Shown here: in pieces, positions 37,574 to 49,881 of the stretch
Layout: the number at the start of each line of letters is the position of its first letter
How positions within the stretch are numbered: the stretch's first letter is position 1
Assembly (NCBI GenBank): GCA_033763315.1
Contig: JANRKS010000017.1
Location: 97,597 to 161,596 of the forward strand
DNA: 64,000 nucleotides
Direction of reading: 5' to 3'
From: Deltaproteobacteria bacterium
GTDB taxonomy: Bacteria; Myxococcota_A; Polyangia; Fen-1088
Translations under genes and position numbers: made by a program
Notes under the pieces: generated by a model
What the model was told of the DNA's origin: nothing
Databases searched by the model: none
What the model saw: the letters and a program-made list of their open reading frames with translations, nothing else

Positions 37574-37773
37574 GGTCCTATTTTCGGCGCTTTGAGGCAG
37601 AACGTGAACGCCGGGCTTTGGCATGGGTGTATGTGTTGCGTGGGCCTACCTAAGAGATGCGAACGCCCTGGCGGCCGCCGGATTCCGCCGTCGTTTAACT
37701 ATCGACAATCGCTTTTGCTGCCGATTCCCTCCAGTATATGAAGAGTGAACCACCAGGAAGTTCGGGTGATCGC

Positions 37774-39486
37774 ATGAAGTTTACTGTGAAGCTTCACTTG
37801 GGAAGCGCGCTTGCGCTCCTCTTCGCGGCCTGCTCAGGGGCCGTTTCCGGCGACGGAACGGGTGACGGATTCGGCGCCCAAGGTGGTGGTGGCGGCCGCT
37901 CTGGAGGCGGCCCAGGCGCCACGCACGCGTGCCCTAAAGCAGGCGCTGCGGATCCCGGTGCGTCGCCGTTGCGGCGACTCTCGAAGGTTGAATACAACAA
38001 CACCGTGGCCGACCTGCTGGGTGACACCAGCGAGCCTGCGAATGCGTTCCCTCCAGAATCGCGCGTGCATGGTTTCGACAACCAAGTGACGACTCAGACG
38101 GTGACGTACACGCTGGCGGATTACATGTTCAAAACCGCCGAGCAGCTCGCGAACAGAGCGATCACCAAACTCGACACACTGTATTCGTGTGACGTCGCGA
38201 AGCTGGGCGAGATGACTTGCGCGCAGACCTTCGTTCGCGACTTTGGCAAACGCGCCTACCGTCGGCCCTTGCTTGCCGCGGAGGAAACGAGCCTCATGGG
38301 GACCTACACCAAGGGCAGGCAAACGGGCGACTTCAAGAACGGCTTGCGTTTGGTGATCACGCGCTTGTTGGCGTCGCCACACTTTCTGTATCGCCCTGAG
38401 CTCGGCGATGCGGGTGCCGCGAACGCCCGAGGGGCTGTGCCATTGACGGCGTATGAAGTGGCTTCGCGGCTTTCCTATCTGCTGTGGGGAACGATGCCCG
38501 ACCAAACCTTGTTCGATGCCGCAGACAAGAACGAACTGTCCACCGCGAACCAGGTGTCTTCACACGTGGCGCGAATGATGAATGACCCCAAGGCAAAAGC
38601 AGCGGTGCGGAGATTCTATTCGGGGTGGCTCATGTTGGATCGGCTGGCCCAGTCGTCCAAAGATGAGAAGTTGTTTCCGGGTTATGGCGCCGTTGTGCCT
38701 TCAATGATGGAAGAGATCACACGCACGATGGATGATGTGATCTGGGGGGACGATGCCTCGGTCACCAAGCTGTTCACCACTGATTACACTTTTGCCAACC
38801 GGGATCTGGCTTCGTTTGTCGGGCTCTCAAATGCCGCCTCGATGAACAAAGACTTCGCGCGCGTGAGCTTGTCGCCACAGGGGCCGGGAGGCGCCTCACA
38901 GCGTATGGGCATTCTGGCAACGCCAGGTTTGTTGGCCGCGCAATCAAAGCCGCAAGAAACGTCGCCGGTGTTGCGGGGCCGCTTTGTGCTCGAACAGATG
39001 CTGTGCATGGAATTGCCTTTGCCACCCGCGGGCGTGCCGCCTCTCGAGGCTGTGGACACCTCGGCGCTGACCACGCGCGAACGGTTTGAGCAACATGCCG
39101 AATCAGCGTGCGCTTCGTGCCACAAGTTCTTGGACCCCATTGGCTTTGCCTTCGAGAATTTCGACGCTGCCGGGCGATACCGTTCCACCGAGAAAAACAA
39201 GCCCATCAACACGAGCGGTACCCTCACCGAAACAGATGTGGACGGGGCATTTGACAACGCCGTGGGCCTCACGAACCTCTTGGCCAAAAGCGAGCGCGTG
39301 CGTGAGTGCATTGCCAAACAATGGTTTCGGTTCGCGATGGGGCGCAACGAGACGGATGAGGCCGAGCGCGGGTTAGGGCAGTTGGCCTGCGGCTTCCGCG
39401 GCGACGAGGCCAATCTGAACACGCTTTTAGGTGCGGTGACGCAAACCGATGCCTTCCTCTACAAAACGGCGGGAGCCAAACCATGA
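37774..39486 (+). CDS. DUF1592/DUF1588-family multidomain lipoprotein with one CxxCH
   Basis: LRRLSKVEYNNTVADLL; ASRLSYLLWGTMPD; TSPVLRG; CASCH; lipobox FAAC. Confidence 0.9.
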   Translation: MKFTVKLHLGSALALLFAACSGAVSGDGTGDGFGAQGGGGGRSGGGPGATHACPKAGAADPGASPLRRLSKVEYNNTVADLLGDTSEPANAFPPESRVHGFDNQVTTQTVTYTLADYMFKTAEQLANRAITKLDTLYSCDVAKLGEMTCAQTFVRDFGKRAYRRPLLAAEETSLMGTYTKGRQTGDFKNGLRLVITRLLASPHFLYRPELGDAGAANARGAVPLTAYEVASRLSYLLWGTMPDQTLFDAADKNELSTANQVSSHVARMMNDPKAKAAVRRFYSGWLMLDRLAQSSKDEKLFPGYGAVVPSMMEEITRTMDDVIWGDDASVTKLFTTDYTFANRDLASFVGLSNAASMNKDFARVSLSPQGPGGASQRMGILATPGLLAAQSKPQETSPVLRGRFVLEQMLCMELPLPPAGVPPLEAVDTSALTTRERFEQHAESACASCHKFLDPIGFAFENFDAAGRYRSTEKNKPINTSGTLTETDVDGAFDNAVGLTNLLAKSERVRECIAKQWFRFAMGRNETDEAERGLGQLACGFRGDEANLNTLLGAVTQTDAFLYKTAGAKP

Positions 39487-40850
39487 AACGCATCAATCGT
39501 CGAACCGTGTTGCGTGGCTTGGGCGGGGTTGTGGTGCCTTTGCCCCTCTTGGATATCATGGCCCGCACGGCGCCGGCGCGCGCCGAGTCCTCGATCACCA
39601 AGACGGGCCCCAACGGTGCACCCAAACGATTTATTGTGTTCTTCACGCCGTGTGGCCAGGGTGCCGATTGGCTGCGTTGCACGAACGACGCGCAGGGCAA
39701 GCTGGTGCTCAGCGCGGCCATGCAGCCCTTGCAGCGCCATAAAGACCAATTGATGGTTTTGGATGGCATAAACAACAAGAGCGCGCTGTTCGACGCGGCC
39801 TCGATCGATCCCGGCCACCAAAAGCCCATGGTGAACCTGATGACTTGCTTGCCCTCCAACAACGGCCTGGGCGGTGGCATTTCGATCGATCAGGCGATTG
39901 CGAAGGAGATCTCAACAGGCACGAAATTCCCGTCGGTGCAGTTGGGTGTGCAGCCAAACGGGGGCTTTTCCGGGGCGCTTTCCTACAGCGCCGCTCGTGT
40001 GCCCATTCCCCCCATTGGCGATCCGAAACAAGCGTTTACGCGGCTGTTCTCTGATCTCAACACGGACCAAACCACTTTCGCCAAGCTTAACGCCGATCGA
40101 AAATCGATTCTCGATGGCATCAAAGAAGACTTCAGCGGCTTGGCGCAAAAGCTAAGCGGTGACGATCGGATGAAGATCGAGTCTCACCTTGATGGCATTC
40201 GAGAAGTTGAATCGCGTCTGGTGTCTTCTAACACCACGAGTTGCCTTGCTCCCACGGCGCCTGCGGCCGGGGGCACGGGCGCGGACGGCTTGATCGCCGC
40301 CGGCGACGCATACATCAAGCTTTTGGCCACGGCATTGGCCTGTGACCTTACCCGCGTGGCCTCGATCATGTACCAAGGATCGGGAGGCAACCCGCAGCTG
40401 CCTGGCATGCCCAAGGGCATTCATGACGCTTCTCACGATTACGGAGCGCTTGGCTGGCCGGTGCGCAACCAATACACATCGTGGTTCGCCGGGCGCTTCG
40501 CCATGTTGATGGATCTCTTGAAGGCCGCGGACGAAGGGGGGCGTTCTGTTCTCGACAACACCGTGATCTACTGGTGCTCCGAGCACGGCGCGGGCAACCA
40601 CAACTATGACTGGATGCCGATCTTGGTGGCCGGAAGCGGCGGCGGGTACTTCAAGACAGGGCGGCAAATCAAATACCCCAACCTCACGGATGGCCTGAAC
40701 TATGTGCAATACAACGCGGGCTCCGACAAGGCCACCGGTCCAAGCCAAGCGGACCTCTACGTTTCATTCATGAACGCCATGGGTATTAGCGCCAACACCT
40801 TTGGCGTTGCAAGCCAGTGCAAGGGGGCGTTGCCTAATCTCACGGTGTAG
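39483..40850 (+). CDS. DUF1552 domain protein with Tat signal
   Basis: INRRTVLRGLGG; SIDQ; LACDLTRVAS; IHDASH; SEHGAGNH. Confidence 0.9.
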   Translation: MKRINRRTVLRGLGGVVVPLPLLDIMARTAPARAESSITKTGPNGAPKRFIVFFTPCGQGADWLRCTNDAQGKLVLSAAMQPLQRHKDQLMVLDGINNKSALFDAASIDPGHQKPMVNLMTCLPSNNGLGGGISIDQAIAKEISTGTKFPSVQLGVQPNGGFSGALSYSAARVPIPPIGDPKQAFTRLFSDLNTDQTTFAKLNADRKSILDGIKEDFSGLAQKLSGDDRMKIESHLDGIREVESRLVSSNTTSCLAPTAPAAGGTGADGLIAAGDAYIKLLATALACDLTRVASIMYQGSGGNPQLPGMPKGIHDASHDYGALGWPVRNQYTSWFAGRFAMLMDLLKAADEGGRSVLDNTVIYWCSEHGAGNHNYDWMPILVAGSGGGYFKTGRQIKYPNLTDGLNYVQYNAGSDKATGPSQADLYVSFMNAMGISANTFGVASQCKGALPNLTV

Positions 40851-40928
40851 GAGGTCCGAACCCGTCTGGTAAGCGCCCCGCGCTGGTCAGCATCTGATAC
40901 ATTGCGCCCAGACAATGAGGGGGTGCAT

Positions 40929-41942
40929 GTGAACTTCGCAGAGCTTTCGTCGGGTGATGTGGCGCCAGGCTTGTTGCTTGGATTTGTGGTTTGGTTTGTG
41001 GTGCGGCACGTGGTCACCGGTTTTTACACCGTGGATCAAAACGAACGCGCTGTGAAAACGGTGTTGGGTCGCGCGGTGAGGGTGGGGCAAGCCACCACCA
41101 CGGAGCTGCCCATGGCGGCTTCGTTGCGGCCTGACGAGCAGACGCGCTACGCTTATCCTCAGGTGCGCGTGATTCCCCCGGGTGGCCCTTACTTTCGGTG
41201 GCCATGGGAAAGAATCCACAAGGTTTCGATCGCCACTCAAACGGTGAATATCGCGTTTGATCCAGAATCGCCCGGTGCCAACAACGGTGGAACGGTGCTT
41301 GAGGCCGTGACCAAAGATCACCTCAACACAGGGTTGACGGGACAGCTTCGCTATCGTGTGTCTGAGCAAAACCTATACGCTTACCTTTTCGGCGTGCAGC
41401 GGCCGTTCTTGCACGTGATGGGCTATTTCGTTTCGATTCTGCGTGAACGCATCGCGAACTTCGAGGCGCCCCAGCGCAACCCGCTGTCCACTGACGCGAT
41501 TACGGAGTCCGCCAGCGTTCATGGCGTGTCGATTAATGATTTGCGCAAGAACCTGCGGGATCTGAATGAACACATGGATGCCGAGAGCCGGTCTTCGGTG
41601 GCTCGCTACGGCATTGCGCTCGACGCGTGCTTGATCACTGGCATTGATCCACCGCACGAGGTTGAATCAGCCTTGGCGGCCATCAACACGGCTCACAACC
41701 ATGTGTCCTCCGAGATCAGCTTGGCGCAAGCGGGCGCCGACCAGAAGATCGTTCAATCGCGGCGCGCGGTTGAGATCGAAACCCTCAAGGCACAAGCCGA
41801 AGTCGAGCCACTCGTCGCTGTGGCGCAACAGCTCGCCACGATTAAGCAGGGGGGACCGGGGGTGCTGGCGGCCTATCTGCGCAACGTGCGTTTGGCGTTG
41901 CTGCAGAAGGCGGATCGCGTGTTCTTGGAGATCAAGGAGTAG
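40929..41942 (+). CDS. SPFH (band 7/stomatin/prohibitin) domain protein
   Basis: N-terminal TM followed by GFYTVDQNERAV; PGGPYFRWPWE; ITGIDPP; coiled-coil tail. Confidence 0.85.
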   Translation: MNFAELSSGDVAPGLLLGFVVWFVVRHVVTGFYTVDQNERAVKTVLGRAVRVGQATTTELPMAASLRPDEQTRYAYPQVRVIPPGGPYFRWPWERIHKVSIATQTVNIAFDPESPGANNGGTVLEAVTKDHLNTGLTGQLRYRVSEQNLYAYLFGVQRPFLHVMGYFVSILRERIANFEAPQRNPLSTDAITESASVHGVSINDLRKNLRDLNEHMDAESRSSVARYGIALDACLITGIDPPHEVESALAAINTAHNHVSSEISLAQAGADQKIVQSRRAVEIETLKAQAEVEPLVAVAQQLATIKQGGPGVLAAYLRNVRLALLQKADRVFLEIKE

Positions 41943-41944
41943 CC

Positions 41945-42847
41945 ATGCTGGTATTCGCTGGAATCGGTTTTGCTTTATGCCTCGTTCTGTTGCCCATGGC
42001 GTTTGCCGTTCTGCGGCTGCTTGGTGTTTATGCCATCGTCAAAGAACGTGAATGCCGGGTATTCGTCCTGTTTGGCAAAGTGCTGGCCTCCATCGACGAG
42101 CCAGGTTTGCATTTCCTTTGGTTCAAACTGGGCCCGGCGGCTCTGATTGTGAACTGGTTGGGCAAATCCTACGCCATCGATATGCGGCTCGATCAACAGT
42201 ACCTACGCAGCCAGCCCGTGAACTCGGAAGAGGGCGCACCGATGGGCATCGGCATTTGGTACGAGATGTTCATCAGCGATCCCGTGGCATATCTATTCCG
42301 CAACGCCGATCCGCGTGGCTCCTTGGCGGCAAACGTGGGCAACGCGGCGGTGCGCTGCTTATCGAATATGCCGCTTGAAGGCATGCTCGAGAACCGCCAC
42401 CAGATGAGCCAATCGGTGCGCGATGAGGTTTCACCCAAGGCGCACGAATGGGGATACCAACTTGGCTCCGTCTATATACGCAAGGTCCACTTTCGAGATG
42501 ACGCCATGATTGCTCAGATCGAGGCCAAGGTGGTGAACCGCCTGCGACAGGTGACGTCGGCCATTCAACAAGGGGGCGCCAACCAGGTGAGCATTATCAA
42601 GAGCACCGCGGAACGACAAGCGGCGATCGAGTTCGCCAAAGCCGCAGCCTTGCGTCCCGAGATCGTGGGGGCCGCTTTGAACAAGATTGCCGCTGATCCA
42701 GAGGTGCTCGAGACCATGTTCAAGATGCTTGAGACCGAACGGTTGTTAGAAGGCGAACGCCGCGTGACGTTTGTGCCGCAAGGCACGGGCAGTTTGGCGC
42801 CTTTACTTGCGGGCGCTTCACCCACGATCGTTCGCCCGTCACGTTGA
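41945..42847 (+). CDS. SPFH domain protein (second of a pair)
   Basis: N-terminal TM; VLFGK...EPGLHF; WGYQLGSVYIRKV. Confidence 0.85.
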   Translation: MLVFAGIGFALCLVLLPMAFAVLRLLGVYAIVKERECRVFVLFGKVLASIDEPGLHFLWFKLGPAALIVNWLGKSYAIDMRLDQQYLRSQPVNSEEGAPMGIGIWYEMFISDPVAYLFRNADPRGSLAANVGNAAVRCLSNMPLEGMLENRHQMSQSVRDEVSPKAHEWGYQLGSVYIRKVHFRDDAMIAQIEAKVVNRLRQVTSAIQQGGANQVSIIKSTAERQAAIEFAKAAALRPEIVGAALNKIAADPEVLETMFKMLETERLLEGERRVTFVPQGTGSLAPLLAGASPTIVRPSR

Positions 42848-43071: not shown

Positions 43072-43686
43072 ATGGCTCAGACGATCGTTATTGTTGCGCT
43101 CTCGCTTGCGTTGGCCTTTGCGGCGTTTCTCCATTTCGGCGTGCCAACCCTGCTGCACACGCATTGGGGAAAGCTTGCCCTGCTGGTTGGCGCGGTGGTG
43201 CTTCCGGTTGTCACCTCTGCAGGCAGTATGGCCGTGGGGTTTCACCAATCGAGCCGCACGGTGTTCTGCTTGACCTGCCACGAGATGCAGAACCACGGCA
43301 AAAGCTTGTTTGCCGACAATCCGAAATCATTGGTGGCGGCTCACTACCAAAATCGCTTGGTGGATCGAGACAGCATTTGTTACTCGTGCCACAAGGACTA
43401 CGCGATGTTCGGCGACGTCAAGGCGAAGCTCAATGGGCTACGTCACGTTTATGTGCACTATCTCGGTAGCATTCCCAACAAGTTTGCGCTCTACCAGCCG
43501 TATCCCAACTCGAACTGCTTGCATTGTCACGCCGATGCACGTCGCTTTGTGGAAGGCCAAGCACATGCGGGAGTTATGACGAAGATCTTGTCGAACCAGA
43601 TGTCGTGCCTTGGCTGCCACAACGTGGCCCATGACATGAAGAATGTGGAAGCTGGAAATTTTTGGCAGGCGCAATACCCCCAGTAG
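43072..43686 (+). CDS. NapC/NirT (NrfH/CymA-like) membrane-anchored tetraheme cytochrome c
   Basis: Two N-terminal hydrophobic helices; FCLTCHEM, CYSCH, CLHCH and CLGCH...AH; KAKLNGLRH. Confidence 0.9.
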   Translation: MAQTIVIVALSLALAFAAFLHFGVPTLLHTHWGKLALLVGAVVLPVVTSAGSMAVGFHQSSRTVFCLTCHEMQNHGKSLFADNPKSLVAAHYQNRLVDRDSICYSCHKDYAMFGDVKAKLNGLRHVYVHYLGSIPNKFALYQPYPNSNCLHCHADARRFVEGQAHAGVMTKILSNQMSCLGCHNVAHDMKNVEAGNFWQAQYPQ

Positions 43687-43692
43687 CTCCTG

Positions 43693-43896
43693 ATGGGAAC
43701 CAAAAACGAAAAACAAGTGCGTCGAGGCCTTTTGCTCACAGGTATGGGCCTAGCGATTGAGGTTGGCGCGCAATTTTATTGGACGCCCATGACCTTCGTC
43801 GTGGCGGCGTCCGTGGGTGTTCCACTGGTGCTGCTGGGAGCCTGGATGTTTATGCAAGCCGCGTGGCGATCGCTTAAACAAAAGGGAGCCCTATGA
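43693..43896 (+). CDS. Small two-TM membrane protein in the cytochrome operon
   Basis: 67 aa with two hydrophobic segments; starts 6 nt after the NapC-like gene and overlaps the next gene at ATGA. Confidence 0.7.
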   Translation: MGTKNEKQVRRGLLLTGMGLAIEVGAQFYWTPMTFVVAASVGVPLVLLGAWMFMQAAWRSLKQKGAL

Positions 43897-44210
43897 CCGG
43901 GCGGCAAGGACTGGTTCTAACGTTGGCGTTCGGTGCCGTGAGCCTTGTTTCCGTGTGGGCTGTGGCCGTGCCTGATGTGGTGCGCATTCCACACCGCGAT
44001 CTCGCTACACCGATGCCCAACGCCCGCTTTTCTCATCGTGGCCACGCACAGTACCAGTGCTATTCGTGCCATCCCTCTGTGTTCCCGCAAATGCGTGAGA
44101 GCTTCACGCACGTGCAGATGGATGAAGGCCGCTACTGCGCGCGCTGCCACAACGGCGGTGCGGCACCGGCCGTGAAGTCTTACGCATGTGAGGTGTGCCA
44201 TGCGCGCTGA
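43893..44210 (+). CDS. c7-like periplasmic triheme cytochrome c
   Basis: Signal peptide; FSHRGH; CYSCH, CARCH(NG) and CEVCH. Confidence 0.88.
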   Translation: MTGRQGLVLTLAFGAVSLVSVWAVAVPDVVRIPHRDLATPMPNARFSHRGHAQYQCYSCHPSVFPQMRESFTHVQMDEGRYCARCHNGGAAPAVKSYACEVCHAR

Positions 44211-46290
44211 GGTTGGGGCGCTGCTCGCGCTGCTCGTTTGGCCGTCGCTTGCGTCGGCTGAGCCAACCCGCCCCGAGAAGAACCGGCAGCAGTTGCTGGA
44301 CGAGCTGGGCTTGCATCGGGTCAACAAGCCTGAACCTGCCGAACCGAAACCTGCCGAGGCTGAACCCGCGGAACCTGAATCGCCAACAACTCAGCCCTCC
44401 GCGGCTGCGGAGTCCACCAAGCCGGCTGGGCCTGCACCGCCTTCGTTCAAGCGCCAGATCCATCCGTGGCTCAATCAAATGTGTGGTGCGTGCCATATGA
44501 AGGACGGGCCTGCCGGCGCGACGGGGTTGCTGTTGGGTCAAAGCGGCGCGCGCGATCACGCGAGCGTCGTGAAGTTTACGAACATGCGCGCGCCCAAGAA
44601 AAGCAGCCTCGTACTTAAAGCGCTGGGCAGCGCGCACGGGGGGGGCGCTGTGGCCACGGCGGGATCCTCCGAAATGCGCCGGTTGTTGGCCTGGATCGCG
44701 AGCGGTGCGCCCTATGTGGACCCCGTGGCGGACGCCAACCCTGTCGCTCTTCCCGCAACGAGGGCGCCTTCGAAGAACAAAGCAAATACGGAGGTTGCCC
44801 CCGCCGCTGCCGCGCCGGCTGAGCCTGCTGCGAATCTGAGCGCCACGCCCGTGGTGGTGGCTTCTCCAGAGGTTTCATCGCTGCCTGAAACACCGAAGGC
44901 CGCGCCCGCATCAACAGCCTTCGCCGATGTTGTGCACCCGGTGTTGCATAGCAAATGCAGCACGTGCCACAGCGCCGCGGGTATGGCGGCGCGCACGCGG
45001 TTTGTGCTCACGGGTGACATCAAAGCTGATTATGCCGGCGTCGCTGTGTTGGTGACACCGGGCGCACCCGACCAAAGTTTGCTGCTGCAGAAGGCATCAG
45101 GCCAAGCACACCTGCCCGTGTTGCCGAAGGGCACGGAGGCTTTCATCGCCGTTGCTGCCTGGATCAACGATGGCGCGCCAAGTGGTGCGCCATCGCCACC
45201 CGCGTCTATCGAAGCCGCCGCGCCCGACACGGGGGGGCGCCTCACGTCATCAACCCCGTCGCCGCCGTTGTCTCACGCGTCGCTTCCGATGGCGCCACCC
45301 TCCAATCCCGGATTCGCGCTGGCAGGGTTTCGTCTCAATGGCCGCTTCGACATGAACTTGGAACGTCGTGGTGTTTCCGCGCAGCCTTTTAGCGACGGCC
45401 AAACGCAGCTCCAGAACTATCATCACTTCTTGTTTCTTTCGCGCGACGACGCGGATGAGCCGATCAACTTCAGCGTCGAGTTGACGGCCTTGACCTTCTG
45501 GGAAGCGAGCTTGCGCGTGTCACCAGCGCACGCGCCTTATGACCTGCGTTTGAAGGTGGGCAAGCTCATCGTGCCCTTCGGCGCGGAGCCGCTGTTCCAT
45601 CAAAGTTATGGTGGCTTGCAGGGTTTCGATCAAAAGGTTTTGCCGGTGTTTTGGGCGCAAAATGGTTTTGGCGCCAAACTATCCAAACGTCTGTCGCACC
45701 TCGGCCTCATGGCCGACGCGTTCGTGGTGCGTGGCTACGCTCTGCGCGACGCCGAGGGGGTGCTTAGCCTGCAAAGCGACATCTCATCAACGGACGACGT
45801 GCGGCCTGCCTATGGCTTGCGTTTGAACGCGTCTTTTGGCCCGGCCTCGGCCTATTACAGCCTGCTCGTGAACGGACTTGGCTTTGGCCGCACGCTGGTC
45901 ATGCAAGCGATCGATCTGAGCTTGTGGCGCTGGCATGGCGTACCCGTGCTTGAGCGCTTCACTTTCGGCCTTGGTTTCTTGCGTGCCGACATCTCTGGTG
46001 GGGGCCCAGGCAAGGACTATTACCATTTCGCCAGCTACTACCAGGCGCGCTTTTACATCACGGACGTTGTGTACGTGCAGTACCGCCAAGGTTTGCGAAC
46101 GTTCAATAACCGCCGCGGCTTCTATCAAGATACCACGCGGTTTACCGTTGAAGATGGCTCCGCCCACAACGTAGGCATCGTGTGGCGACACAAAGCTTGG
46201 ACCACCGGTGCCTTTGGCTTCTGGAACCTCGAGAAGGTCAATGAAGCGCGCGATGACTTCTTCCGTTTGGTGGTGGCCTATGAGTTCTAG
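44200..46290 (+). CDS. Diheme cytochrome c fused to a C-terminal outer-membrane porin-like beta-barrel
   Basis: Signal peptide ending ASA-E; two homologous cytochrome domains (CGACH, CSTCH) with Pro/Ala linkers; barrel with RLNGRFDM and LKVGKLIVPFG; terminal VVAYEF. Confidence 0.8.
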   Translation: MRAEVGALLALLVWPSLASAEPTRPEKNRQQLLDELGLHRVNKPEPAEPKPAEAEPAEPESPTTQPSAAAESTKPAGPAPPSFKRQIHPWLNQMCGACHMKDGPAGATGLLLGQSGARDHASVVKFTNMRAPKKSSLVLKALGSAHGGGAVATAGSSEMRRLLAWIASGAPYVDPVADANPVALPATRAPSKNKANTEVAPAAAAPAEPAANLSATPVVVASPEVSSLPETPKAAPASTAFADVVHPVLHSKCSTCHSAAGMAARTRFVLTGDIKADYAGVAVLVTPGAPDQSLLLQKASGQAHLPVLPKGTEAFIAVAAWINDGAPSGAPSPPASIEAAAPDTGGRLTSSTPSPPLSHASLPMAPPSNPGFALAGFRLNGRFDMNLERRGVSAQPFSDGQTQLQNYHHFLFLSRDDADEPINFSVELTALTFWEASLRVSPAHAPYDLRLKVGKLIVPFGAEPLFHQSYGGLQGFDQKVLPVFWAQNGFGAKLSKRLSHLGLMADAFVVRGYALRDAEGVLSLQSDISSTDDVRPAYGLRLNASFGPASAYYSLLVNGLGFGRTLVMQAIDLSLWRWHGVPVLERFTFGLGFLRADISGGGPGKDYYHFASYYQARFYITDVVYVQYRQGLRTFNNRRGFYQDTTRFTVEDGSAHNVGIVWRHKAWTTGAFGFWNLEKVNEARDDFFRLVVAYEF

Positions 46291-46720
46291 ATGGCTGGTG
46301 TTGCTGCTGTTTGCTGGCTGCGCGGATTTGTCACGCGGCGAGACGCCTGAAGTGCCCGATGCGGCTTTGGCGCAAGACGCGCAGGGCCCCGCCGACGGAG
46401 CCATGGCTGACGACGCTGAGAGCGCAGACCCCAAACCTTCCACCGTTGTGTTCGCTGACGTGCAGCCGCTGTTCGCTGCCGGCTGCGGCGAGTGCCACCG
46501 CATGGGAGGTCAGGCTGCGAACACCACACTTCTGCTAACGGGTGACGCCAGCTCGGATTTGGCCACCTTATTGCCGTACATAAACCGCAACGACAACGCA
46601 AACAGCCGCTTGTTGACGAAAGCCTTCGGGCGCAACCACGGCGGCGGTGCGATTTGGTCCTCTGGCTCGATGCAGGCGACAACCGTATTGATGTGGATCC
46701 AACAAGGAGCGCGGCCGTGA
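46280..46720 (+). CDS. Monoheme cytochrome c lipoprotein
   Basis: Lipobox FAGC; VQPLFAAGCGECH...HGGG...WIQQGA, homologous to the heme domains of the upstream gene. Confidence 0.82.
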   Translation: MSSRWLVLLLFAGCADLSRGETPEVPDAALAQDAQGPADGAMADDAESADPKPSTVVFADVQPLFAAGCGECHRMGGQAANTTLLLTGDASSDLATLLPYINRNDNANSRLLTKAFGRNHGGGAIWSSGSMQATTVLMWIQQGARP

Positions 46721-46737: not shown

Positions 46738-49113
46738 ATGACCATGAACTTGTGCACACGATTGACTGTGGCGTTTGGTGTGGTTGCTGTTTTGGCGGGC
46801 TGTGCCGATCTTGAGCTTGAAAAGGTCCCCACAATCGTCACCACGGGCTCGCACCAAGTGTTGGTGGGGCAGACCTTGCAGATTACCGCCAGCACAACCA
46901 ATGCTGCCGATACCAGTTACACCTACGCGAGCAGTGCCCAAGCGGTGGCGTCGGTCGGGCCGACGGGCCTTGTCACAGGTGTGAGCGCAGGCGAAGCCGA
47001 CATCGTCGTGACCGGCGTGCCAAGCGGTGCGGTTGGTAAGCACGCGGTTGTGGTCGTGGCAAATGCCTTGAGCGCGGACGCGATGCCTGAACCAGATGGC
47101 GCCGCGCCCGACGCGACCGCCGATGCAGAACCTGTGCAGATCCCCTACTTCGATAAATGGAAAGGTTCCGCCCACGCCGATTCAACCTCTGAACCCTTCG
47201 CACATTGGAACAAAGAGGGTGCCGTGCCTGTAAACTGCGCGCGCTGCCACAGCTCCGAGGGTTTTATCGATTATTTGGGCGGCGATGGCTCGGTGCCCGG
47301 CCGCGTGGATGCGCCAGCTCCCACGCAGTCGGTCGTTCGTTGTGTGACGTGCCACGATCCCGCCGCCACCAAGCTTTCGACTGTGACGTTCCCTTCAGGC
47401 GCCACGATTTCAGGGCTTGGCGCTGAGGCCCGCTGCATGACGTGCCACCAAGGCCGCGCCTTTGGCGGTGATGTAGATAAATCCATCGCGGCCGCAGCGC
47501 CCGCCACGCTTGACACCGTCAGCGACAAGCTGGGCTTCCTCAACATCCACTATTATCCGGCGGCTGCCACGCTTTATGCTGGGCGTGCCAAAGGTGGATA
47601 CCAGTACGAGGGGCAGGTTTATGACGTGCGCTTCCGCCACGTTGAAGGCTACGACACATGCACTGGTTGCCACGACCCCCATTCGCTGCAGATCAAGTTC
47701 AACGAGTGCGTGTCGTGTCACGCGGGTGCCAAAGACTTGGCCGGCGCTCAGCAGATCCGGATGTTTTCGTCTCAGAACCGCGACTATGACGGCGATGGCA
47801 ACGTGCAGGAGGGCTTGGCACAAGAGCTTTACGGCGTGCGCGACAAACTCACGGCCGCGATGGCGGAGTACGCCAAAGAAAAGAACGCGCCGATTTGTTA
47901 TCAACCCGCCACCTATCCCTATTTCTTCAACGACACCAACAAGAACGGTCTGTGTGGCGCTGATGAAGCTGTGGCGACGAATGGCTATAAGACCTGGACG
48001 CCGCGAATGGTGAAGGCTGCGTATAACTTTCAACTTGCCACGAAGGATCCAGGCGGCTTCGCTCACAACGCGAAGTACTTGATCCAACTCATGCACGACA
48101 GCATCAACGATCTGAACCAAGCGCTGCTGGTGAAGGTGGATATGGCACAGGCCGTTCGCCAAGATACCGGCCACTTCAATGGCGCGGGCCAAGCGGCACG
48201 GCGTTGGGATTCAGGTGATGCCGTCGACGCCACCTGTTCGCGTTGCCATGGGGGCTCGGAAGGTTACCGCTTCTATGTGCAATATGGCGTTGGCCTCAAG
48301 GTGCAAGAAACCGCCAACGGTTTGGATTGCGCCACCTGCCACACCAGCTTTGGCAGCAAGTTCGATGTGCTTGCGGTGCCCTCCACAACTTTCCCAAGCG
48401 GGGTCGTACGCAAGGAGCCGGGCAACGATAACCTATGCAGCACTTGCCACAGCGGTCGCTCCGCCAAAGCCACGGTCGATGGCATCATCGCCACCGGCCC
48501 GCTGAAGTTCTCCAACGTTCACTACCTGCCGGCGGCGGCGACAAAACTGGGATCTGCCACCAAGGTCGGTTACGAATACACAGGCAAGACTTACGCAGGG
48601 CCCTTGACCCACATGGGCGGCGTGCAGTGCACGTCATGCCACGATCCCATCGCCAGCAAACACAGCTTCCGCATCGACGATGTGTTTGCCGAGCGTTGCC
48701 GCACGTGCCACGCCGATGCGTTGGGCAACGCCGAAAACATTCGCCTGGTGCACCTTGCGGACTACGACGGCGACAAGAACACCACCGAAACGTTGCCCGC
48801 TGAGCTTTCGGGCATGGCAAGTCGCTTGCTGGCGGCCATGGTGGCGGTGGCGACACCGAAGCTTTGCTACGCCCACACGAACCCGTACTTCTTCACCGAC
48901 ACCGATGGCAACGGCACCTGCGACGCCACCGAGGCGGTATCTGCCAACGCCTACAAAACGTTCACACCCGCGTTGTTGAAGGCCTCGTTCAATTATCAGC
49001 TTTACCAAGTGGAGCCGGGCGCCTGGGCCCACAACTTCAACTACGTGGGGCAACTTTTGTACGATTCGATCGAGGACCTGGGCGGCAACGTTACGGGGCT
49101 GACCCGGCCTTAA
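46738..49113 (+). CDS. Decaheme cytochrome c lipoprotein with Ig-like (Big_2-like) domain, OmcB-like
   Basis: Lipobox LAGC; Ig-like YASSAQAVASVGPTGLVTGV; 10 CxxCH in two 5-heme repeats, each ending PG.(F/W)AHN..Y..QL..DSI.DL. Alternative start GTG at 46717. Confidence 0.88.
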   Translation: MTMNLCTRLTVAFGVVAVLAGCADLELEKVPTIVTTGSHQVLVGQTLQITASTTNAADTSYTYASSAQAVASVGPTGLVTGVSAGEADIVVTGVPSGAVGKHAVVVVANALSADAMPEPDGAAPDATADAEPVQIPYFDKWKGSAHADSTSEPFAHWNKEGAVPVNCARCHSSEGFIDYLGGDGSVPGRVDAPAPTQSVVRCVTCHDPAATKLSTVTFPSGATISGLGAEARCMTCHQGRAFGGDVDKSIAAAAPATLDTVSDKLGFLNIHYYPAAATLYAGRAKGGYQYEGQVYDVRFRHVEGYDTCTGCHDPHSLQIKFNECVSCHAGAKDLAGAQQIRMFSSQNRDYDGDGNVQEGLAQELYGVRDKLTAAMAEYAKEKNAPICYQPATYPYFFNDTNKNGLCGADEAVATNGYKTWTPRMVKAAYNFQLATKDPGGFAHNAKYLIQLMHDSINDLNQALLVKVDMAQAVRQDTGHFNGAGQAARRWDSGDAVDATCSRCHGGSEGYRFYVQYGVGLKVQETANGLDCATCHTSFGSKFDVLAVPSTTFPSGVVRKEPGNDNLCSTCHSGRSAKATVDGIIATGPLKFSNVHYLPAAATKLGSATKVGYEYTGKTYAGPLTHMGGVQCTSCHDPIASKHSFRIDDVFAERCRTCHADALGNAENIRLVHLADYDGDKNTTETLPAELSGMASRLLAAMVAVATPKLCYAHTNPYFFTDTDGNGTCDATEAVSANAYKTFTPALLKASFNYQLYQVEPGAWAHNFNYVGQLLYDSIEDLGGNVTGLTRP

Positions 49114-49173
49114 CGCAGCCTTGGTGCGGTGTTGCTGCGCGGGGGAGGGCAGCTAAACTTCCTCCGTAGCAAC

Positions 49174-49881
49174 ATGGCGCTAGAAGAATACCGCAGCAAA
49201 CGGAAGTTCAAGGTTACCAGCGAGCCGGAAGGCAAGCCGGTCAAGAAGTCATCGAAGCGCAAGAAGAAGCTCGCGTTCGTGGTGCAAAAACATCGCGCCT
49301 CCGCTTTGCACTACGATCTAAGGCTGGAGTGGAATGGTGTGATGCTTTCGTGGGCCGTGCCCAAGGGCCCCTCGTACGACCCGAAGGTCAAACGGATGGC
49401 CATGCACGTGGAAGATCACCCGATCGAATACAACAAGTTCGAGGGCGTCATTCCCGAAGGCGAATACGGTGGCGGCACCGTGATGATTTGGGACCACGGC
49501 ACATGGACGCCCGAGTCCGAGGACGTGGACGACGCTCTTGCGCGCGGCGATCTCAAATTTACCTTTGAGGGTTTGAAGCTACGTGGATCATGGGTGCTGG
49601 TGCGAACGGGCCGCAAAGGTGAACAGCCAAGCAAATCTTGGTTGCTGATCAAGCATAAGGATGAGTGGACCAGCGAGCAGGACGTCACCGTGTTGTTCCC
49701 ACGCTCCGTGGTTTCGAACCGGCTTTTATTTGAAATTGCACGCGACGAAGGGGGCAACGTGCGCAAGGCGGCCGATGGCGATCCACCCGAGGCACTTAAG
49801 GAAATCGTGGAGAACCCAAGTCTCCTCGCACCCGCCAGGGGCAAAGGCAAGAAGTCGGTGTGGCATTCGAATCGAGGCTGA
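49174..49881 (+). CDS. Stand-alone LigD 3'-phosphoesterase domain protein
   Basis: Motifs LEEYRSKRKF, FVVQKHRASALHYDLRLE, SWAVPKGPS, VEDHP and YGGGTVMIWD. Confidence 0.92.
   Translation: MALEEYRSKRKFKVTSEPEGKPVKKSSKRKKKLAFVVQKHRASALHYDLRLEWNGVMLSWAVPKGPSYDPKVKRMAMHVEDHPIEYNKFEGVIPEGEYGGGTVMIWDHGTWTPESEDVDDALARGDLKFTFEGLKLRGSWVLVRTGRKGEQPSKSWLLIKHKDEWTSEQDVTVLFPRSVVSNRLLFEIARDEGGNVRKAADGDPPEALKEIVENPSLLAPARGKGKKSVWHSNRG

Follow-up and report, generated by a model that had tools for sequence, protein, structure and literature searches.

An operon of cytochrome genes in the window, a 64,000-nucleotide stretch of Deltaproteobacteria bacterium DNA (GenBank assembly GCA_033763315.1, contig JANRKS010000017.1), contains the gene for a diheme cytochrome-porin fusion protein, P0001. 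The genes, which overlap or abut, run in the order NapC-like tetraheme cytochrome, small membrane protein, c7-type triheme cytochrome, fusion, monoheme lipoprotein and decaheme lipoprotein. The fusion is a real, apparently undescribed variant of porin-cytochrome systems and its barrel is probably part of an undescribed myxobacterial electron-transfer module, in which the separate c7, and not the fused heme domains, is the predicted plug of the barrel.

Architecture and conservation of the fusion protein

The fusion gene and its parts lie on the forward (+) strand as follows.

44200..46290, +: diheme cytochrome-porin fusion P0001, 696 amino acids (aa); open reading frame (ORF) and translation, homologs, AlphaFold2 model
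44200..44259, +: probable Sec signal peptide, residues 1-20, judged by eye; A20 nearly invariant
44269..44319, +: conserved amphipathic N-terminal helix, residues 24-40, fused forms only; probable docking element
44437..44715, +: heme domain 1, residues 80-172, C95/C98/H99 and distal H146
44716..44910, +: Pro/Ala linker between the heme domains, 65 aa (homologs 45-94)
44911..45186, +: heme domain 2, residues 238-329, C253/C256/H257 and distal H304
45187..45315, +: Pro/Ala/Ser linker between heme domain 2 and the barrel, 43 aa (homologs 23-60)
45316..46287, +: predicted 16-strand OprP/OprO-like beta-barrel; loop L3 (458-485) long and conserved, last residue Phe
45421..45423, +: invariant His408 of barrel strand 2, inferred to be lumen-facing
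45598..45600, +: His467, loop L3, invariant

The original prediction, made from the sequence of the window, had read this frame as a signal peptide, two repeated heme domains joined by long Pro/Ala linkers and a C-terminal barrel ending in Phe, and all of these elements were borne out. Residues 1-20 are Sec-like by eye, and Ala20 at the end of the putative signal peptide is at least 90% conserved in the homolog alignment. The two heme domains, of ~93 aa each, share 34% identity (E 3e-13) and carry their CxxCH motifs at residues 95-99 and 253-257; since each also holds an invariant distal His in the homolog alignment, H146 and H304 respectively, both fused hemes are most likely bis-His ligated. 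In the full-length AlphaFold2 model (mean predicted local distance difference test score (pLDDT) 77, predicted template modelling score (pTM) 0.56) the domains are confident, whereas the three linkers (38, 65 and 43 aa; 42-50% Pro+Ala) are mostly at pLDDT <50. The C-terminus is YEF. A terminal aromatic residue is the beta-signal of the beta-barrel assembly machinery (BAM), a lipobox marks a lipoprotein, and both termini of a barrel of this kind are periplasmic.

A search of 8000 scored candidates gave 226 homologs of the fusion protein, and the motif counts given here are for the 120 listed, the query included. Two CxxCH motifs are present in 119/120, and the C-terminal residue is F in 115/120 and L in 5/120. 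The N-terminal helix is present in the AlphaFold2 model and its motif is found in 110 of the 120 fused proteins compared with 0 of 24 hand-picked unfused ones, with R29 kept in 119/120. Named carriers are mostly Myxococcota, including records named Corallococcus exercitus, C. coralloides and Myxococcus dinghuensis, and complete chromosomes of isolates (L046, L068) carry the fused form too. The barrel is single-copy in its own genome and is found in 19/36 genomes of the window's own family, in 6/301 genomes of a phylum-wide sample that includes its own genome, and in 32/251 genomes of a further phylum sample (one of them unpublished). An assembly artefact was considered and is ruled out by the conserved two-motif homologs and the fused copies in complete isolate chromosomes. 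Two low-share DNA sequencing runs consisted of short contigs, none of those listed joining heme domain 2 to the barrel, and the listed sequencing runs holding the fusion gene included no RNA run.

Folded by itself, the heme domain reaches a pLDDT of 97.5. Its nearest solved folds are FoxE (Z 7.6, root-mean-square deviation (rmsd) 2.8, 85 aligned) and then PccH (Z 6.2, rmsd 3.0, 79 aligned), Z scores that serve as leads only, and Foldseek with the domain returned nothing at E<=0.001. The sequence match to FoxE is weak (E 0.038), as is similarity to PSCyt1 (E<=0.1 in 24/141 heme-domain members, the lowest being 0.00026); the domain resembles PSCyt2/PSD proteins in their Atlas models at template modelling scores of 0.86-0.87, and searching PDB sequences with the full alignment yielded matches driven only by linker or motif. 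The heme domain has His-Gly-Gly in the ligand loop, whereas the PSCyt1-type domains of its own genome have Met-Pro-Pro a few residues later. The monoheme lipoprotein encoded at 46280-46720 is 36% identical to heme domain 1 (E 5e-18), and on this sequence comparison the fused domains are paralogs of its domain; a heme-domain tree was too short for ordering the duplications. The window's own genome also encodes more proteins with the same His-type domain (including G000:C31:79011-81029 and G000:C2:399009-399581) and at least six Met-type PSCyt1-like paralogs, six ORFs of ~800-1100 aa. At another locus, L052:8971-9915, a lipoprotein carries two tandem heme domains beside an unfused barrel.

The barrel and its predicted plug

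Residues 373-696 fold as a barrel of 16 strand elements in the AlphaFold2 model, counted from its DSSP list with two segments at 401-415 taken as one strand. The best solved matches are 16-strand porins, OprO (4rjx, E 3.4e-9) and OprP (2o4v, E 3.6e-9), with the OprP alignment giving Z 22.1 and rmsd 3.8 over 283 aligned residues, and MtrB (6r2q) is only 44th among the fold matches (Z 10.2, rmsd 8.4, 237 aligned). Atlas structural neighbours of the barrel carry Porin_O_P (PF07396). Although the fold is that of OprP/OprO, the PF07396 hidden Markov model does not match the barrel at E<=0.1, nor 45 relatives at E<=0.01, and no Pfam or NCBIfam family matches it; surveys based on families would therefore miss this barrel family. 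The backbone radius is ~15.5 Å for 16 strands versus 24 Å for 26 strands (assumed shear numbers), and the barrel is therefore too narrow for an MtrA-like rod.

His408 and His467 are each conserved in 37/37, 57/57 and 34/34 sequences of three alignments, the distant barrel clade included. H408 has the same strand parity as F410 (91% conserved), F412 (98%) and S414; because of this parity, and because F412 touches c7 in the complex model, H408, F410 and F412 should face the lumen. These residues could serve as a hopping path, as a bridging heme or metal site, or as a site for a pore-entering substrate as proposed for Cyc2. H656 was tried as a further invariant His (37/37 and 56/57) and not counted, as it is kept in 19/34 distant barrels and its orientation is ambiguous.

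The barrel, the monoheme lipoprotein, c7 and four hemes were predicted in one model and c7 was scored. The c7 complex scored 0.77, against 0.01 for the best of three controls and 0.00 once the barrel was replaced; the score mark is reached by 116/157 solved and 2/215 mismatched pairs, a benchmark that applies here only approximately. Contacts agreed to at least 87% between runs, with a partner pLDDT of at least 85. The c7 contacts listed are to the barrel only and comprise the start of strand 1 (G376, R378, N380), F412, S414, L3 residues 462-465, short turns and the C-terminus, which in the model is the periplasmic face of the barrel, and the c7 side of the predicted interface is centred on its first heme motif. 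No similar complex is found among the listed solved-structure matches of the barrel. The model supports c7 as the plug, with the fused domains hanging in the periplasm.

Operon, unfused relatives and the history of the fusion

The neighbouring genes of the operon are the following.

43072..43686, +: tetraheme cytochrome of the NapC/NirT family (PF03264, E 6.5e-12, above cut-off), probably a quinol dehydrogenase
43693..43896, +: 67-aa hydrophobic membrane protein, conserved beside the NapC-like gene, no Pfam family
43893..44210, +: c7-type triheme cytochrome, predicted periplasmic barrel plug (PF14522 and TIGR04257 above cut-off)
46280..46720, +: monoheme lipoprotein, paralogous to the heme domains of the fusion; CADFxRG motif conserved behind its lipid Cys
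46744..49113, +: decaheme lipoprotein, Ig-like domain present, probably a cytochrome of the outer surface

This operon is conserved, mostly in Myxococcota. The comparison of loci started from 78 genome loci, taken from the best 80 of 98 stretches, of which 7 were dropped as 5'-truncated and 71 kept; related genomes are not independent, the frameshifted loci L044 and L059 were assigned by hand to the two-domain group, and L019 is nearly a duplicate of L020. The barrel carries no fused heme domain in 34 loci, one in 3 and two in 34. A c7 gene lies upstream of the barrel in 34/34 two-domain and 33/34 unfused loci, and the monoheme lipoprotein gene follows it in 33/34 of each, both misses being at contig ends. 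Among wide loci, with at least 3 kb upstream and at least 4 kb downstream, c7, monoheme lipoprotein, NapC-like gene and decaheme homolog are each present in 28/28 two-domain loci, and in 25/26, 26/26, 10/26 and 9/26 unfused loci, respectively. As the NapC-like and decaheme genes accompany all wide fusions and a minority of unfused barrels, the core consists of c7, barrel and monoheme lipoprotein, and the fusion goes with the fullest version of the operon and takes no gene away from it. An apparent loss of hemes from NapC in unfused loci (2-3 CxxCH vs 4) was dropped as an artefact of CxxxCH and CxxxxCH variants; 'two-heme' c7 proteins likewise have their third motif as CxxxCH.

C1, R6 and G7 of the monoheme lipoprotein are invariant in 56/56 rows, which were picked by their CADFxRG motif, and a variable linker follows. 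Both lipoproteins (46280-46720 and 46744-49113) begin C-A-D-L after the lipobox, homologs keeping CADFxRG and CA[EK]LE, and judging from sequence these shared N-termini could be a sorting signal or a barrel-binding peptide. The decaheme neighbour is the only ORF of its genome with 10 CxxCH. A promoter and terminator scan of the locus gave chance-level results. Two tandem SPFH/Band 7 genes (40902-42847) immediately precede the operon and share its strand, and a stand-alone LigD 3'-phosphoesterase domain gene (49129-49881) lies directly downstream of the decaheme gene. The gene pair at 37738-40850, ~2 kb upstream of the operon, presumably encodes PSD-domain (DUF1592-like) and DUF1552-like proteins.

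Unfused forms are shorter homologs in which the signal peptide leads straight into the barrel, with no heme domain. When 1.84 billion representatives were searched with a profile, 200 matches resulted; among the 150 listed the longest has 838 aa, and the full barrel matches of at least 300 aa have no, one or two heme motifs. A quick, midpoint-rooted tree of 85 barrel rows puts the unfused forms at the base and the fused forms nested within, with 5 label changes, and fits a single origin of the double fusion as well as two. P0308 (413 aa), from a distant clade, has one heme domain of the same type directly after the signal peptide, a Cyc2-like layout, and its single-domain fusion is probably independent of the double one. 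We lean narrowly towards the fusion being a derived add-on that copied the heme domain of the lipoprotein and left the plug in place.

The gene context of the distant barrel clade was drawn from 7 genome regions. An ApbE flavin-transferase gene follows the barrel in 4/5 regions fetched for the most distant of these barrels (L108:10329-11534, L109:8433-9488, L110:7674-9194 and L111:8473-9930); the part of the ApbE study PMC8238504 drawn on here mentions no barrel. At L105:9194-12141 a distant barrel is followed by an FMN-binding protein and a monoheme lipoprotein, with an MtrC/MtrF-like decaheme gene divergent, and at L106:3161-10540 another is divergent from a cluster of 6-, 13-, 30- and 5-heme cytochromes. 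Acidic tails occur on the c7 C-termini of L022, L034, L047, L050 and L053, and acidic N-terminal motifs on distant unfused barrels of the P0262 type; they are a possible counterpart of the basic helix of the fused forms.

Proposed electron transfer and comparison with known systems

We slightly favour a reading in which the fusion is the outer-membrane barrel of a porin-cytochrome conduit, with a narrow barrel, a triheme plug and periplasmic tethered heme relays added by fusion. By established rules applied to the sequence, the protein would be exported by Sec, receive two c hemes in the periplasm and be inserted by BAM via its terminal Phe. The c7 triheme is predicted to dock in the periplasmic mouth, the first of its heme motifs pointing to the lumen and loop L3, and the fused bis-His domains, on linkers of 43 and 65 residues, would relay electrons from the NapC-like quinol dehydrogenase of the inner membrane to the c7 plug in a PgcA-like manner, their far end probably docked on a partner by the N-terminal helix that is peculiar to fused forms. 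Electrons would then cross the rest of the barrel, possibly via F412, F410, H408 and H467 or a cofactor there, and pass to the monoheme and decaheme lipoproteins, which is the weakest step. The direction is probably outward from quinol, and uptake is also possible. A bolder version, which we consider doubtful, makes the barrel itself a redox protein: H408 and H467 would lie opposite one another at the constriction and hold a non-covalent heme or a metal as a bridge from the c7 plug to the surface lipoproteins, so that a 16-strand porin would conduct without a membrane-spanning multiheme rod, and the fused domains, held at the far end by the N-terminal helix, would form a covalent swinging wire across the periplasm.

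Several points weigh against the conduit. The predicted interface residues are no better conserved than the barrel average (0.58 vs 0.62), the c7 docking was modelled with ligands riding along, outside the calibration of the tool, and, with L3 folded inward, a triheme lodged in the periplasmic mouth may fail to reach the outside. In addition, 12/26 wide unfused loci have no gene of at least 9 hemes and 16/26 no nearby NapC-like gene, so the barrel core can occur without either end of the proposed chain. This minimal cluster of c7, barrel and lipoprotein, without decaheme or NapC, would suit a Cyc2-like substrate-entry channel, in which a soluble metal or small substrate binds H408/H467 and exchanges an electron with c7, no electron reaches a surface protein and the tethered domains still act as a periplasmic relay; an invariant His pair, inferred to lie in the lumen, would fit as well. 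The nearest solved folds of the heme domain, FoxE and PccH, which we take to be electron-uptake proteins, point the same way. The barrel is also of the same class as that of Cyc2, where substrate entry is the proposed mechanism (10.1101/228056). Such a channel deserves serious weight but is unlikely, given that a decaheme lipoprotein, typical of solid-phase electron exchange, is present in 28/28 wide fused loci and that the ORFs of the window's own genome have no Cyc2 motif.

The original prediction was that the tethered domains may plug the barrel in place of a separate MtrA/OmaB-type cytochrome, and they are indeed covalently tethered beside its periplasmic mouth, much as the heme domain of Cyc2 is proposed to plug its own barrel (10.1101/228056). 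This substitution is not supported and we rate it very improbable: no cytochrome gene was lost upon fusion, c7 being present in all two-domain loci, c7 occupies the periplasmic mouth in the complex model, the linkers vary from 23 to 60 and from 45 to 94 aa, and the pTM of 0.56 despite confident domains, although it comes from the full-length model and is not a direct docking score, is consistent with no fixed docking. As the barrel has 16 strands and not the 26 of MtrB, no plug of MtrA size would ever have been there for replacement. It is likewise quite improbable that the fused domains are passed out during barrel assembly and displayed outside the cell to extend reach to minerals, as in PgcA, an extracellular tethered-domain cytochrome (PMC11520253), even though the paralogous lipoprotein may be surface-exposed; the first barrel strand begins on the c7-binding face, with G376, R378 and N380 in the interface, c7 and L3 would block a threaded linker, and periplasmic heme attachment and folding make passage via a 16-strand pore unlikely. 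A non-respiratory role, with the hemes as accessories of a redox-gated metal or nutrient uptake channel or of a redox sensor, would agree with a fold that is that of solute porins, with distant barrels that adjoin ApbE or FMN-binding genes and not c7, and with several carriers named Corallococcus or Myxococcus, which are aerobes. We give it little probability, since the operon's 20 heme motifs, together with its NapC-like quinol dehydrogenase, suggest electron flux, and within the window no transporter gene lies between the flanking genes of the operon.

No description of the fusion protein or operon was found in the literature searched, from which subscription journals were mostly absent. Unclassified multiheme clusters are reported to be many in Myxococcota and may include members of this operon (10.1101/2022.03.26.485925); PMC9040806, PMC10654088, PMC5615132 and PMC12307469 were also consulted. 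The fusion resembles Cyc2/Cyt572 in having a signal peptide and an N-terminal c-heme domain fused to a 16-strand OprP/OprO-like barrel, but, as originally predicted, it is not a canonical Cyc2. Cyc2 has a single CxxCH (10.1101/228056; its features are also given in PMC13741234) in one small heme domain, whereas the fusion has two ~93-aa bis-His domains on long linkers; the PxFAR[QK][TY] motif of Cyc2 is found in 0/120 of the homologs listed, where the first CxxCH stands at residue 87 or later. Unlike Cyc2, the fusion has a separate c7 as predicted plug, a multiheme operon and basal unfused forms. Cyc2 is also not the only such protein in print, as had been assumed: GM18_3465 of Geobacter sp. 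M18 is a predicted single-chain porin with 10 heme motifs in predicted loops and 21 predicted strands (PMC4245776), and is like the fusion, by description only, in being one porin chain with several heme motifs.

The locus also resembles the Pcc (OmaB-OmbB-OmcB) and MtrCAB systems, where the porin gene is flanked by genes for a periplasmic multiheme cytochrome and a multiheme lipoprotein and a NapC-family quinol dehydrogenase likewise takes part: the c7 gene adjoins the barrel gene, with its insertion seen in the model only, and the multiheme lipoprotein is a decaheme protein with a lipobox and a putative outer location. The barrel has 16 strands versus 18-22 predicted for Pcc (PMC4245776) and 26 in MtrB (10.1101/228056), the periplasmic cytochrome has 3 hemes versus 5-14 in Pcc/Mtr (PMC4245776), and P0001 differs further by its fused heme domains and a barrel without Pfam or NCBIfam match. 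PgcA of Geobacter sulfurreducens shares separate monoheme domains, flexible low-complexity linkers and, if the fused domains act as relays, tethered-diffusion transfer (PMC11520253), but its linkers are of the (PT)x type and it has no barrel; no PgcA chain is among the listed fold or sequence matches of the heme domain. Barrels with no, one or two fused domains, together with the probably independent P0308, suggest that Cyc2-like architectures can arise repeatedly, and as the operon is present in cultured isolates, extracellular electron transfer in myxobacteria is directly testable. Known conduits have either a wide barrel of 18-26 strands with a multiheme rod or, in Cyc2, a narrow barrel with one heme; if the conduit reading is true, this family would have a triheme plug and tethered relays together with a narrow barrel.

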